This document shows, piece after piece, positions 9,064 to 13,295 of a stretch of DNA of 17,878 bases. The translations under genes were made by a program, and so were the position numbers. Every line of letters starts with the position of its first letter. Within the stretch, counting starts at the first letter, position 1. The notes under the pieces are model-generated. The model searched no databases, had not been told where the DNA came from, and saw only the letters and a list, made by a program, of their open reading frames with translations. Origin of the DNA: Promethearchaeota archaeon (GTDB lineage Archaea; Asgardarchaeota; Lokiarchaeia; Sigyniarchaeales; SOKP01); NCBI GenBank assembly GCA_048938025.1, contig JBHLMP010000063.1, forward strand, positions 1 through 17,878. Reading direction: 5' to 3'.

Positions 9064-11952
9064 TTAAGTTTTTATATAAATTGCTGGTTTATAGGGTATA
9101 GCTTTTATGACGCGATTATTTGGATCATATTCTGAATTGATAATTATTGGATTATTGACTCTTTTTTCAATGTGGTTCTTATATTCTTCTAGTATTTCAT
9201 TCTCATAAAAAGTAAATAATTCTTTTTCCCATATCCTATTTTTAATTTGACTCTTAATATAAGAAATTAAATCTTTATTTTTTATAAGCTCTTTATTTTT
9301 TTTACATTCAGCTAAAATTTCATTAAAGTTCCCTTTTTGTGAAACAATTATTTTTGAAACCTTATTTTTCCAGTTAGGAGCTGTATATAAGTAAATATCA
9401 TTTGAATCTACAGATTTTACTATTTTTTTAATATTTAAGATATCATCTATAACAGTTGCTATGTAGTCATACTCTTTTTCCAGTTTTTCATTAATAAGAT
9501 CCATGTGAAAATCACCCCAAATCGTCTCTGAGATAAAACCTTTATTTCCCATTAATTGCCATAGTTCTTCACATAAATGGGGCATAGTTAAAGAGAGAAT
9601 TTGAATCCAATCAGGAAAAATAATTTTAAATACAATTTTAATATCATCTCGATCCTCACAATATCTAATATAATCTTGTATTAGGTTAAAAACCTCGTAG
9701 AATGATAATTGCAGATATTTCCTTTGATTTAATTCCTCCAATCCTCTTTCTGCCTTAATTAAGATTCTGAGACATTTTGATAAGATAACCTTTGAATACT
9801 TAGATTGAATATTCCCTATTTTTGCTTCAATATCTTTTATCTTTTCTATATTTTCGACCGCAAACATATAAAATCGGTTAATATGATTTTTAACTATTTG
9901 AATCTGTTTCTCTCTCCAATCCATATTTATTCCAAAATCAGCGCTATGAGAGATATAGAGCCTAAATAAATCTGCAGAATAATTTGATTGAATCGAGCCC
10001 ATTTGAATGATATTTCCTTTTGACTTTCCCATTTTTTGACCTTCTATAATTACAGGTTCGATTAACGAAACAATTTTTGGCCAATGCTTTTCCGGAAAAA
10101 TGGCAACATGATGGAAAATATAAAAGCTCAAATGATTTGAGATATGCATTATAGCAGTATGACGATGATCTACTGGATACCAGTAAAGAAATTCATCTTG
10201 CATTTGTTTCAATAACTTAGAATTGATATTCGTCTTATTCGATACGACAGAGAGTTCACCTTTTTCCAGGAAAACAAAATCAAAAAATTCGGGGATTAAT
10301 TGCTCAGGTGTAATATTGTATTTTTTTAGCAAATGAGATATTGTATAGAAACTCATATATATCGTAGAATCACTTAAAGATTCTATAATCCACTCTTTAT
10401 CAAATGGAAGTTTTGTGCCCAAACCTCTCTTTCTAGCACAAGGTCTTTTCTCTAGCCAATGAAAAACGTTTTCGAAATTCGTTCTATATTTTTTAGGGAT
10501 AATAACCATCTTGTTTAAACAATCAAATGCTTTTTGCTTCCAATCCCCTGCATTGAAATTTATAAACCATTGATCCTTCAAAATTGAAACAATTATCTGT
10601 TCTCCACATCTGCATTTAAGACCTTTAGTAATTGGAATGTACAATTTTCCTGCCTTATTATCTTCAATTAGATCATTAATTACTTCGGTGACCACTTCAT
10701 ATACTTTTTTTCCTTCATATTTTTCGCATTTATCGTTTAAAATACCATTATAGAATTCATTTTTGTAATTCTCTGAAGTTGCATTATCTAATTTCTCTAT
10801 GTCTTTTTGTGAGTGAACTTTAAATTTTTCACAATAGATTTTTGCTGGAATATCATCAAATCCATCTAGATCGATAATTTGAATTGGCTCTATATTGTCG
10901 ATTTCTTCCTTATTTAGATTAAATGCTTTAATTATTTTTTCATCTTTTTGTATATCGATTAATGCAATATAGTCATACGGCGCATGAGCCGGTACTGAGT
11001 AAACTACTCCTGTAGCTACCGAAGTATCTACAAAGTTTCCTGGCAAAACTATAAGATCCTTCTTTCCATATACCTCTCTTACTCTTTTGCCAATTAGCTC
11101 CCGTCCTTTTACTTTCTTCAAAATCGTTACATTTTTATTTTGATTTTTCAATAGATCTGTTGCCTCTTCAGATATTATCCATTTCTCTCCATTTACATTT
11201 GCATAAACATAGGTTCCATTTGGATTTAACCATAGATTAGTTGCACCATAAATTGTTTCTGGTCTTAAAGTTGCAGGAACTAAATAAGCATCCTCAAAGG
11301 GAAATTTGATACATATATATTCATTAATATCTAAATTGAGTTCATCTCCTCCTGATATATCATCTTCACCGACTGCATTTTCACATCTGGGACAATACAG
11401 AATTGGGTATTCACCTTTTTCCAAATATCCTAGTTCAGATAAGTGATAGTATTGCCATTCAATAAATTTATTATATAATTCATCTCCAGTAGTAAAATCT
11501 CTTCTCCAATCGATACTCATTCCAAATGATTTAAAATCAATTTCTATTGTATTAGAGAAATATTTTACAACATTCCAAGGATCTATAAAATTATATACAA
11601 TTTCCTCAATTGTTTTTTGATCTTTAGTGTGTAATGACACATAATCTTTCATTCTTTCAATTGTTTCTTGATCGTTCCTTTCAATAGAGGAAGAGATTGC
11701 TAAAACGGGAGTTCCTGTAATATGAAAAGCCATTGGATATAAAACATTATACCCTTTTGCTCGATAATATCTTGCAAAAATATCACCATTTACAAAACTT
11801 CTACCATTCCCGATATGCATTGTACCAGAAGCATATGGATATGGTGATGTAATAAATATCTTTTTCTTATCTGGATCTGGATTAGCTTCAAAAATTTTTG
11901 CTTCTTCCCATTTACCTTGCCATTTCTTTTCTAGTTGTCTTGGATTATACAC
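9064..11952 (-). CDS. leuS: Leucine--tRNA ligase, archaeal type
   Basis: PYPYASGTMHIGN (HIGH), CP1 editing motifs ATLRPETIYG and GVVYSVPAHAPYDY, IESLSDSTIY, KMGKSKGN (KMSKS), C-terminal KAIPYKPAIYI. GTG start 5 nt after GGTGGT. Confidence 0.97.
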   Translation of the reverse strand: MYNPRQLEKKWQGKWEEAKIFEANPDPDKKKIFITSPYPYASGTMHIGNGRSFVNGDIFARYYRAKGYNVLYPMAFHITGTPVLAISSSIERNDQETIERMKDYVSLHTKDQKTIEEIVYNFIDPWNVVKYFSNTIEIDFKSFGMSIDWRRDFTTGDELYNKFIEWQYYHLSELGYLEKGEYPILYCPRCENAVGEDDISGGDELNLDINEYICIKFPFEDAYLVPATLRPETIYGATNLWLNPNGTYVYANVNGEKWIISEEATDLLKNQNKNVTILKKVKGRELIGKRVREVYGKKDLIVLPGNFVDTSVATGVVYSVPAHAPYDYIALIDIQKDEKIIKAFNLNKEEIDNIEPIQIIDLDGFDDIPAKIYCEKFKVHSQKDIEKLDNATSENYKNEFYNGILNDKCEKYEGKKVYEVVTEVINDLIEDNKAGKLYIPITKGLKCRCGEQIIVSILKDQWFINFNAGDWKQKAFDCLNKMVIIPKKYRTNFENVFHWLEKRPCARKRGLGTKLPFDKEWIIESLSDSTIYMSFYTISHLLKKYNITPEQLIPEFFDFVFLEKGELSVVSNKTNINSKLLKQMQDEFLYWYPVDHRHTAIMHISNHLSFYIFHHVAIFPEKHWPKIVSLIEPVIIEGQKMGKSKGNIIQMGSIQSNYSADLFRLYISHSADFGINMDWREKQIQIVKNHINRFYMFAVENIEKIKDIEAKIGNIQSKYSKVILSKCLRILIKAERGLEELNQRKYLQLSFYEVFNLIQDYIRYCEDRDDIKIVFKIIFPDWIQILSLTMPHLCEELWQLMGNKGFISETIWGDFHMDLINEKLEKEYDYIATVIDDILNIKKIVKSVDSNDIYLYTAPNWKNKVSKIIVSQKGNFNEILAECKKNKELIKNKDLISYIKSQIKNRIWEKELFTFYENEILEEYKNHIEKRVNNPIIINSEYDPNNRVIKAIPYKPAIYIKT

Positions 11953-12091
11953 TTTCTACCACCAATTTTTTTATGAGCTCAATAGGGCAATCACCCATCC
12001 TTAATCTTTTTCAAATAAATAAGCACACCAAGCAAACAAATCCGTGGAAAATTTATAAGAAAAAGGTTGAGTGGATTTGTTTCGCTCATAA
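11953..12091 (-). promoter_or_regulatory. Structured leuS leader region (candidate attenuator)
   Basis: Perfect 10-bp helix 12082..12073 with 12043..12034; 8-bp helix 12091..12084 with 11978..11971; U-tracts in the loop; SD GGUGGU at 11963..11958. Confidence 0.6.
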
Positions 12092-12166
12092 TAATAAAAC
12101 TGCTAAGAGTAAATTATCTAAGGATAATCTTGACAATCTTCTTAAAGCAATCTTATTTGAACTCAT
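12086..12166 (-). CDS. Leucine-rich leader peptide (26 aa) upstream of leuS
   Basis: ATG AGT TCA AAT AAG ATT GCT TTA AGA AGA TTG TCA AGA TTA TCC TTA GAT AAT TTA CTC TTA GCA GTT TTA TTA TTA TGA = MSSNKIALRRLSRLSLDNLLLAVLLL*. 10 of 26 residues are Leu; same strand as leuS. Confidence 0.75.
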   Translation of the reverse strand: MSSNKIALRRLSRLSLDNLLLAVLLL

Positions 12167-12190
12167 TGTTATAATAATCTTATCTTTTCT

Positions 12191-12208
12191 TTTATATAAA
12201 TTTTTACT
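12191..12208 (-). promoter_or_regulatory. BRE + TATA box of the leader peptide-leuS transcript
   Basis: Minus strand reads AGTAAAAA-TTTATATAAA. The TATA box begins 34 nt before the leader ATG (12166), which puts the transcription start within a few nt of that ATG. Confidence 0.6.
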
Positions 12209-12248
12209 TGAAAGATTTGAGTAAAAAGACCGAAATATTCAAGAGATT

Positions 12249-13295
12249 CTATTTCACTATAACCATTTCATGCAATGTCTTTCCTTCTTCTTTATATACT
12301 GTTCCGTTATAGAGAATATCAATATTGAATTTCGTATTAAATCTAAAATATCCTGGTTTAAGTCTAAGCAAATATTTAGCAATAAAGCGTAGAACTGGGC
12401 TTAATTCAAATAATAAATTATTACCATCAATAATATCTTGCACTTCAAGTGATACCTGCTGTTGATCGGTTATTTTAAATATTAAAGATTTTGGATAAGA
12501 ATTATTAACTTTTTCATGGTATTGAAAGTTTTCTTGTATTACTTCATATTCACCAGTACTGAGTATTATATTTTCATCTTTAGCTAGCATTAACACTTTT
12601 ATTGGATAATTATCCATCTTTTTATTACATTTAATGTAAGCAAAAATCATCGTAAATGTATCAGAATAGAGACGTCCCCAATACCAATAATCTACAACAC
12701 GAACCATGTTAAAATTAAGCCAATTATGATCGTGATAACCAATACCCTTTACGGACATTTGTTCATTATTTATTTTTATTGTTCCCTCTACATCGGCTCT
12801 CGGAAGAGCTACACACCATCCAAAATGACCTAATTTTCCAAATTGCGTATAACCCTTCCCGGGCATCCACCCATGAACTTTAGCTTTATACATTAAATGA
12901 AAACCAATATCATTTTCATCTAAAAAAACCTCATAGATAGGCAATTTTTCATTTGAATAGTCAGCTTTCACAAAGTTCTTTCCAATTCTTATATCTGCTT
13001 TATCATCTGAAATGACAAAATCAGAATGCTGATAATCAACAATTTTTTGAATTTTTTCACCATCAGGTTTATAAATTACTATTTCTACGCCTGTCTTACC
13101 AGTCCGCTCATGTTTTGCACGAAAAAACCCAACTACTACATATCCATTATCAAGACGAGCATCAAAATACCACCATTCTGTATTACCTTTCTTCTTCATA
13201 TCAATATGTAGAGCATCATACTCTGGTTTAAATTCTGTTATTTCCCCATCTTTTCTTCCAGGACCAGACCACGCTTCTTTAATAATATTTGTCAT
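12249..13295 (-). CDS. CrtC/AttH-like (hydroxyneurosporene synthase / tocopherol cyclase / Diels-Alderase-like) double beta-barrel protein
   Basis: EWWYFDARLDNG and GIGYHDHNW, WYWGR motifs; beta-rich. GAGGAGA ribosome-binding site upstream. Confidence 0.7.
   Translation of the reverse strand: MTNIIKEAWSGPGRKDGEITEFKPEYDALHIDMKKKGNTEWWYFDARLDNGYVVVGFFRAKHERTGKTGVEIVIYKPDGEKIQKIVDYQHSDFVISDDKADIRIGKNFVKADYSNEKLPIYEVFLDENDIGFHLMYKAKVHGWMPGKGYTQFGKLGHFGWCVALPRADVEGTIKINNEQMSVKGIGYHDHNWLNFNMVRVVDYWYWGRLYSDTFTMIFAYIKCNKKMDNYPIKVLMLAKDENIILSTGEYEVIQENFQYHEKVNNSYPKSLIFKITDQQQVSLEVQDIIDGNNLLFELSPVLRFIAKYLLRLKPGYFRFNTKFNIDILYNGTVYKEEGKTLHEMVIVK

Follow-up and report, generated by a model that had tools for sequence, protein, structure and literature searches.

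The locus examined here raises the question of whether a short, leucine-rich open reading frame (ORF) in front of leuS, the leucyl-tRNA synthetase (LeuRS) gene of an Asgard archaeon, encodes a leader peptide through which that gene is controlled. The locus lies in a stretch of 17,878 nucleotides (nt) from a Promethearchaeota archaeon (assembly GCA_048938025.1, contig JBHLMP010000063.1), which in its full length is called the window below. Leader-peptide attenuation is a textbook mechanism known from Bacteria, represented by leuL and trpL of E. coli and by pheM, which stands before pheST. An initial annotation, made from the letters of the window, had interpreted the ORF as a Leu-sensing leader of leuS, and this interpretation was supported as far as sequence comparison reaches. 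Judging from alignments of related loci, the 26-codon ORF is the front part of an element of about 175 nt, and its probable role is that of a translated sensor within a leader that acts in cis, depends on ribosomes, and tunes leuS to the supply of charged tRNA-Leu.

Ten of the 26 codons of the leader ORF encode Leu (eight TTA, one TTG, and one CTC), Leu occupies six of the final eight positions, and the 3' end reads TTA-TTA-TTA-TGA. The gap between the leader stop codon and the GTG of leuS (11952), on the same strand, is 133 nt. All of these sequence statements had been made in the initial annotation and were correct. The product of leuS scored 955 bits against TIGR00395 (cut-off 648.5).

One explanation to be weighed is that the ORF arose by chance in intergenic DNA rich in A+T, since TTA-rich strings are favoured at 29% GC. 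The window genome (3.52 Mb, 88 contigs, 29.3% GC) was sampled for intergenic ATG ORFs of 15–45 codons under a crude gene mask, yielding 2387 ORFs. A Leu fraction of at least 10/26 was found in eight of them, six Leu among the final eight codons in two, and an ending of three Leu in nine. Such runs were rare in this comparison, which the initial annotation had put forward as a check on Leu enrichment; the composition of the leader alone is seen in about 0.1–0.4% of short ORFs, which is unusual but not decisive. A chance origin is disfavoured mainly because of conservation, rather than composition.

LeuRS was found in 22 of the 41 related genomes. Wherever a same-genus leuS locus included the 5' end of the gene, the ORF stood at the same place (20 of 20 loci), with a length of 26–29 codons and a common ending of two Leu, two other residues, and then three or four Leu. 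Two leuS loci of another family in the order contained no such ORF. A DNA pattern derived from the conserved stretches matched 28 contigs among 185,579 species genomes, and the whole element was present in 24 of them. The records of these 24 matches are titled Promethearchaeota, Promethearchaeia, Hermod- or Thorarchaeota, or 'uncultured archaeon', in agreement with the Asgard-like host suggested initially, and the remaining four matches (two Neobacillus, one Sediminicola, and one labelled Woesearchaeota) were without the element. In all 11 loci newly found by the pattern, the ORF was present and LeuRS lay downstream.

A covariance model built from 31 aligned sequences matched 106 of 131 sampled genomes of the window's Promethearchaeota family, covering 11 of the 13 sampled genera. 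It matched none of 19 genomes in three sister families and none of 125 genomes in 26 other families of the phylum. A single copy of the element was detected in the window genome, by both nhmmer and the covariance model, and many other genomes of the family gave two to four model matches each, with differing codon runs. Outside the family, a Leu-rich short ORF (at least five Leu in the final eight codons) was found 5' of leuS in 2 of 40 genomes from 18 other Asgard families, which is about the chance level. Locus L199 of another Asgard family carries an ATG ORF of 11 codons with six Leu (L199:323-359 (+)), ending 62 nt before the leuS match, and is within chance expectation.

The expectation that a Leu-rich upstream ORF would be kept before orthologous leuS genes was therefore borne out family-wide, while its extension to other Asgard lineages was not, as the element is confined to one family and ORFs elsewhere occur at chance level. 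On these sequence comparisons, the element is real and old inside one family and is no general Asgard trait. The chance level of Leu-rich short ORFs outside the family and the nine three-Leu endings of the sample agree with a chance ORF, but family-wide conservation and the covarying structure described below in effect refute this explanation, which is hardly credible.

The folded anatomy of the element is summarized in Table 1. The core helix of P1 showed changes on both sides at all six pairs among 99 sequences and was maintained across the classes of copies distinguished below, the N-terminal codons changing in step with the codons of the run. The apical pairs of P2 exchange G-C for U-A, and the P2 copy of the window is 6 nt shorter than most. 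A:A' is an interrupted hairpin of 13 bp, whose three lowest pairs involve the stop codon and whose loop of about 30 nt carries two or three U4–U6 tracts. It was 92–98% paired, with changes on both sides at 11 of 12 pairs when one isolated basal pair was excluded (99 sequences), and in 92 of 95 elements the end of the stop codon lay 5–10 nt 5' of the upper A stem. B:B' joins the first part of the A:A' loop, including the first U-tract, to a segment about 50 nt downstream. This helix was used in building no alignment, and its 14 pairs, six of which had changes on both sides, were 88–89% paired.

Across the 31 aligned sequences, 91.9% of cells were paired, versus 38–53% when the 3' partners were slid, and 14 pairs had changed on both sides. 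The observed pairing values were reached by none of 500 shuffles. Among the 99 distinct model matches, 38 of 43 pairs covaried, in an alignment that leans to P1, P2, and A:A' because it was fitted to those helices. The leader of the window folded better than shuffled sequence (z = -3.0).

Table 1. Features of the leuS leader locus and of the Trp-rich leader; positions refer to the window except in the last row.
Feature	Position	Strand	Basis or remark
TATA-like box of leader promoter	12193..12200	(-)	octamer; centre about 30.5 nt 5' of leader ATG
Leader ORF, 26 codons + TGA	12086..12166	(-)	ATG at 12166, TGA ends 12086; read from sequence
P1 5' arm (leader codons 4-7)	12146..12157	(-)	pairs with 12093-12104 in minimum-energy fold; also in RNAalifold
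P2 hairpin in variable middle of ORF	12108..12142	(-)	minimum-energy fold, RNAalifold
P1 3' arm, start of terminal Leu-codon run	12093..12104	(-)	minimum-energy fold, RNAalifold, covariation
A arm, opening with TGA stop codon	12073..12088	(-)	fold and RNAalifold
B segment and U-tracts (a U5, a U4) in A:A' loop	12047..12072	(-)	read from sequence; conserved in alignments
A' arm	12029..12043	(-)	fold, RNAalifold, covariation
B' arm, alternative partner for B, competing with A:A'	11999..12012	(-)	proposed by eye, then tested by pair counts
Shine-Dalgarno-like motif of leuS	11958..11963	(-)	5 nt 5' of GTG at 11952
leuS, archaeal-type leucine--tRNA ligase, 962 aa, GTG start	9064..11952	(-)	TIGR00395 and NF008957, both above cut-off
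Trp-rich ORF	L024:1565-1636 = G000:C84:26077-26148	(-)	enrichment scan; relatives L035-L056

Structure of this quality could belong to a cis-regulatory RNA that works without translation, binding a protein (such as LeuRS itself, in autoregulation), a tRNA, or a small ligand, with the ORF as a by-product of A/U-rich helices. The strong covariation of all helices, the z-score of the whole leader, and the joint change of N- and C-terminal codons that maintains P1, by which pairing constrains the 'peptide', are all compatible with such an RNA. Several features of the ORF point in the other direction. The leader ATG was invariant in the 31-sequence alignment. The frame remained open while its length changed: 95 of 100 model matches contained an ORF of 20–32 codons that began within their first 20 nt, and over the same span the +1 frame was open in 0 of 95 and the +2 frame in 9 of 95. 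Alignment gaps among the 31 sequences measured 6, 3, and 3 nt inside the ORF, versus single nucleotides outside it.

The terminal run also drew on all six synonymous Leu codons. In 56 LeuRS-linked leaders, Leu made up 299 of 448 terminal codons, versus 9.9% of all codons genome-wide, and was encoded by TTA (220), TTG (26), CTT (21), CTC (15), CTA (10), and CTG (7). The position of the stop codon at the base of A was fixed as well. No Rfam family, including the T-box and the Leu, Trp, His, and Thr leaders, matched the window at E values up to 1, and in five representative loci the sole match was a chance viral hit (E 0.66). A T-box or other tRNA-binding leader was rejected as a candidate, as there was no Rfam match and a UGGU of the UGGN type, present between A' and B' in some copies, was not conserved. 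Taken with the position of the ATG relative to the promoter, these observations make a translation-free RNA unlikely, and the ORF appears to be translated.

The manner in which translation would begin is suggested by the promoter. Archaeal TATA boxes centre about 26–27 nt before the transcript start. The best TATA-like octamer was centred at -30.5 relative to the leader ATG in 31 of 97 elements and between -25.5 and -29.5 in 32 more (63 of 97 in total), a geometry that would place the transcript start about 3–4 nt before the ATG and so give a leaderless mRNA. A Shine-Dalgarno-like motif was found in the 15 nt before the leader ATG in none of the 97 elements. Promoter geometry and the absence of this motif both fit a leaderless leader mRNA. 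A second promoter has to be considered further downstream, where the A/T-rich block between A' and B' could be the TATA box of an internal leuS promoter; the covariation of B:B' shows that this region also works as RNA.

A sensor of Leu would be expected to carry Leu codons where it precedes LeuRS, and the other copies of the scaffold allow this to be assessed. A further 80 copies of the element were fetched and sorted by their downstream gene using tblastn with five reference proteins from these loci. In the Leu class, consisting of 56 copies before LeuRS, the final eight codons contained on average 5.3 Leu, 0.04 Ile, and 0.8 Val. Three types of LeuRS stood behind these copies, namely the archaeal type of the window, a second archaeal type (33% identity), and a bacterial type. 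In the Ile/Val class, 17 copies preceded a gene whose product, about 480 aa long, combines FrhB/FdhB and ferredoxin domains with a TrmB-like helix-turn-helix (HTH) domain at the C-terminus (e.g., L115:308-485 (+), L116, L117, L119, L121, L146, and L149). The 16 of them with an ORF averaged 3.5 Ile and 2.0 Val in the final eight codons, in runs of Ile, Val, and Leu. The FrhB-like homologue of the window genome had no element upstream. The remaining 27 copies preceded small ORFs without family matches or, in one case, a longer ORF; they averaged 3.5–5 Val, mostly in runs of three to seven.

When leaders with at least five Leu, at most one Val, and no Ile among the final eight codons were defined as 'Leu-type', 46 of 56 LeuRS-linked leaders and 0 of 43 others fell into this type, the rows being related by descent. 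The match between the enriched amino acid and the downstream gene, noted initially for the window alone, was in this way extended to the family. When the 3' non-coding part was used for a tree (90 columns, with many unresolved forks and therefore a hint only), the classes did not group, and 16 label changes were needed versus a minimum of five. Leu runs were nevertheless carried by the three leaders of bacterial-type LeuRS genes, which in the same tree formed a group (support 97) next to copies of the Val class from the same genomes (support 86). A run that differs where the rest is alike is the outcome predicted by selection on codon identity, and the same pattern would result if the 3' part had undergone gene conversion.

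These classes bear directly on another explanation, in which a translated ORF exerts control in cis with no specificity for Leu, sensing instead general translation capacity or transcription-translation coupling, or acting by nascent-peptide arrest through its hydrophobic tail. Three observations would suit a non-specific sensor: aliphatic residues (Leu, Ile, or Val) close the leaders of every class, one to three Leu are found at the end of many leaders in the Val class as well, and no obvious relation to Ile or Val is seen in the genes that follow the Ile/Val and Val copies. Against it, runs before LeuRS were almost purely Leu with all three LeuRS types, even where the non-coding part resembled that of the Val class, and a separate Trp leader, described next, argues for an amino-acid-specific design in the lineage. 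A non-specific sensor is accordingly considered quite unlikely.

The Trp leader was found by a scan of the window genome in which 881 short ORFs within 350 nt 5' of a long ORF were ranked by enrichment of any amino acid. At the top stood a Trp-rich ORF with 5 Trp in 23 codons (Trp accounts for 1% of codons), located 154 nt before a gene for a TrpB-like pyridoxal phosphate (PLP) enzyme. It was present at the same place in all 23 same-genus loci, with 13–23 codons and 3–5 Trp. A hairpin around its stop codon is followed by U-tracts, and the RNA is unrelated to the leuS scaffold. Upstream ORFs rich in the cognate amino acid, which the initial annotation had suggested looking for elsewhere, were thus represented by this case, while none was found at three other class-I synthetase loci of the window genome, those of a second, bacterial-type LeuRS and of two further class-I synthetase paralogues. 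Between the Trp leader and the TrpB-like gene, about 45 nt containing an inner inverted repeat were also strongly conserved (L039:1400-1470; alignment of L034-L056, columns 170-215), possibly as a protein operator, a promoter, or another RNA motif.

A mechanism by which the leuS leader might act can be proposed from this anatomy. The transcript would start a few nucleotides before the ATG, giving a leaderless mRNA. A ribosome would read the 20–32 codons and reach the Leu run, which was observed in the last 3–8 positions. The stop codon lies in the base of A:A', and two or more U-tracts, which in archaea signal termination and bind aCPSF1, are displayed in the loop of this hairpin. B:B' would pair the U-tracts with the downstream segment and, as is predicted for two helices that each covary, would exclude A:A'. 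With Leu-tRNA plentiful, the ribosome would terminate and leave, A would be free, and A:A', favoured because A' is made before B', would form first; the U-tracts would then be exposed and most transcripts would end before leuS. When Leu-tRNA runs short, stalling on the last Leu codons would leave a ribosome covering the base of A, A:A' would fail, B:B' would hide the U-tracts, and transcription would read through into leuS. We infer such stalling and up-regulation under Leu starvation, including this direction of control. Leader and leuS would share a transcript, as suggested by the covariation of B:B' across the U-tracts.

The competition between the two helices was modelled by folding 31 leaders from the stop codon onwards, with the RNA ending just past A' (nascent), with B' included, and with both B' included and the first 12 nt blocked to mimic a bound ribosome. 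In the nascent RNA, A:A' formed in 29 of 31 leaders. With B' included, A:A' formed in 4 and B:B' in 23 of 31, and when the first 12 nt were also masked, the numbers were 0 and 26, respectively. Taken alone, the helices were about equally stable, with means of -9.5 kcal/mol for A:A' and -8.1 kcal/mol for B:B'. In these models, A:A' and B:B' are predicted to be mutually exclusive, with the first overlapping the end of the ORF, and a strained pseudoknot may hold both.

U-tracts within the leader also invite the view that the ORF encodes a small protein with its own function, or that the transcript is a dual-function small RNA, merely kept beside leuS. The element has its own promoter, and the U-tracts could end a short transcript of about 110–120 nt. 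However, the middle of the peptide was poorly conserved while the RNA helices were maintained, the element stayed before LeuRS genes of three different origins, and 20–32 residues with an aliphatic tail of 8–10 residues would be too short for a membrane span. The covariation of B:B' beyond the U-tracts indicates, in addition, that read-through RNA matters, and an independent small protein or small RNA is improbable.

Regarding the termination signal, the accessible text of PMC8716108 describes archaeal U-tracts as terminating without a hairpin, as being bound as RNA by aCPSF1, and as increasing in efficiency with the number of U4-tracts; it also describes Lokiarchaeota aCPSF1 orthologues as cooperating with U-tracts alike. 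The window genome encodes a member of the aCPSF1 family (TIGR03675, 883 bits). The element contains no bacterial-type intrinsic terminator, that is, no G+C-rich hairpin directly followed by a U run, its U-tracts lying inside the A:A' loop. As archaeal terminators need no hairpin according to the same source, this lack bears on membership in the bacterial type and not on the mode of action.

Besides this lack, several points weigh against a Leu-sensing attenuator of leuS as proposed here. The pairing of the N-terminal codons with the run means that RNA structure dictates part of the peptide composition. Conservation of the frame is also less clear when judged by the distance between the ATG and an anchor in the A arm, which is divisible by three in only 71 of 93 rows of a model-fitted alignment, the stop-to-A spacing varying by 1–4 nt in the Val and bacterial-LeuRS classes. 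The outer pairs of B:B' were just 45–65% paired in the broad 99-sequence alignment, and in the window's own copy this helix is weak (-3.5 kcal/mol). The codons themselves are less telling than they may seem, since the caveat in the initial annotation that TTA is common in AT-rich DNA was confirmed: TTA is the commonest Leu codon of the genome (52% of Leu codons). The genes preceded by Ile/Val and Val copies (FrhB-like/Fer4/TrmB-HTH and small ORFs) lack an evident tie to the amino acids of the runs, a Fisher value for the association of class and gene overstates independence because the sequences are related, and the three synthetase loci of the window genome named above have no such leader. 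For the mechanism, the assumed ribosome footprint sizes are a weak point. Intrinsic termination at the U-tracts would precede the synthesis of A', so that termination in the model has to be delayed and factor-dependent. The A arm would be masked by a ribosome on the stop codon too, and the sign of regulation is therefore unreadable from the sequence. A translational output, by analogy with the mycobacterial leaderless Cys ORFs in the accessible text of the bioRxiv preprint 10.1101/834739, is equally possible.

In view of these points, the specific mechanism involving U-tracts and aCPSF1 is regarded as doubtful, as a model within the more probable reading of the ORF as a sensor of charged tRNA-Leu. 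A wider reading is put forward tentatively. One Asgard family may possess modular, leaderless, ribosome-read attenuators, in which the terminal run of the scaffold has been rewritten gene by gene (Leu, Ile/Val, or Val), which would be accompanied by an unrelated Trp leader, and in which stalling would show U-tracts to aCPSF1 or hide them from it; such a set would constitute the first archaeal case of ribosome-mediated attenuation.

The proposed Leu-sensing leader has parallels with bacterial leader-peptide attenuators. Both have a short ORF just 5' of the regulated gene and on the same strand, with a codon run for the amino acid handled by that gene; both have an ORF end overlapping the first arm of alternative helices, together with a U-rich termination signal; and, like pheM, the leader stands before a synthetase gene. 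Unlike the bacterial systems, it occurs in an archaeal host and begins in a presumably leaderless fashion instead of with a Shine-Dalgarno-led start. No G+C-rich terminator hairpin abuts a U run, the U-tracts being placed in a hairpin loop and alternatively paired downstream, and the regulatory codons are locked in a helix (P1) with the 5' end of the ORF. In contrast to the leader families of Rfam, moreover, the element is matched by none of them in sequence or structure.

T-box leaders of Gram-positive bacteria control aminoacyl-tRNA synthetase genes in cis by tRNA charging, through direct tRNA binding and with no ORF. The proposed function here shares with them the cis control of a synthetase gene by tRNA charging, but the leuS leader has an ORF, gives no T-box match, and has no conserved UGGN bulge. 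Its U-tracts resemble the aCPSF1-read terminators in the accessible text of PMC8716108 in that there are two or more tracts of U4 or longer with no obligatory preceding hairpin and an aCPSF1-family gene in the genome; the terminators described there are constitutive and stand at gene ends, whereas the tracts here lie inside a 5' leader between competing helices.

The accessible text of 10.1101/834739 reports mycobacterial leaderless polycysteine short ORFs as amino-acid-responsive attenuators, in which several loci of one design form a ribosome-directed regulon, the 'Cys ribulon'. The present leaders are similar to those ORFs in being short and probably leaderless, with codon runs for one amino acid. 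They differ from that bacterial system, as it is described there, in that one RNA scaffold is reused with different runs and that the U-tracts suggest control of termination. A regulon of the 'ribulon' kind also contrasts with the single copy of the window genome and with the two to four copies elsewhere, which by their runs would sense different amino acids.

A full-text literature search turned up no description of an amino-acid-sensing leader peptide in any archaeon. The terms 'attenuat' and 'leader peptide' are absent from the accessible text of a review of archaeal transcription-translation coupling (PMC8116511). Two archaeal Ribo-seq papers (PMC11456600 and PMC10117724) name upstream ORFs as possibilities only in their accessible text, and their supplementary tables may list such ORFs.

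Several additional observations were made on the loci that carry the scaffold. The Val-run copies (L131:307-477 (+), L128, L143-L145, L169, L171, L174, L175, L181-L188, and others) are followed by a pair of conserved small ORFs, one of about 45 aa and one of about 60–70 aa, the latter having an acidic-then-aromatic C-terminal motif. The 68-aa small ORF of L131 gave no match against Pfam and NCBIfam. A convergent class I/II aminotransferase gene lies 3' in at least four Val-run loci (L128, L129, L131, and L134), its family having been checked in L131 only. The copy in L183 precedes a longer ORF that is acyl-CoA dehydrogenase-like by eye only. A fourth, more divergent class of the scaffold (L129, L134, L189, L191, and L194), with two leaders lacking a clear aliphatic run, precedes a small ORF of about 65–80 aa.

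In the window itself, two further ORFs were considered and dropped. An ORF of 17 codons (11945..11998 (-)) runs from the end of B' to 8 nt inside leuS and was rejected as a coupling device, being unconserved in relatives. An ORF of 108 aa with a TTG start (11898..12224 (+)), antisense to the leader, is stop-free over 99 codons in the window and over just 40–79 codons in 19 relatives, and is probably no gene. Immediately 5' of the leader promoter lies an ORF of 348 aa (12249-13295 (-)), for which no NCBIfam match was obtained at E values up to 1e-5. Elsewhere in the window genome, the second, bacterial-type LeuRS is located at G000:C48:88736-91699 (-) and shares 78% identity with the bacterial-type LeuRS of L132. 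Its tblastn match falls into two pieces about 100 nt apart, so that the gene may hold an insert or a break. By eye, a sequence resembling a tRNA and seemingly containing an insert was noticed directly 5' of a class-I synthetase paralogue at G000:C73 ~19330-19500 (+).

On the sequence comparisons made here, the element appears to be the first counterpart in Archaea of the leader-peptide attenuators of Bacteria. If this is true, Archaea, with their eukaryote-like RNA polymerase and CPSF-like termination factor, would have evolved the same regulatory logic from different parts. Asgard ribosomes would have to trail RNA polymerase closely enough to steer RNA folding, and the levels of synthetases in Asgard archaea would be set by tRNA charging. 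With a length of about 175 nt, the element offers a compact, mutable handle for testing coupling and factor-dependent termination, and its rewritten codon runs would constitute a natural experiment on the evolution of sensor specificity.

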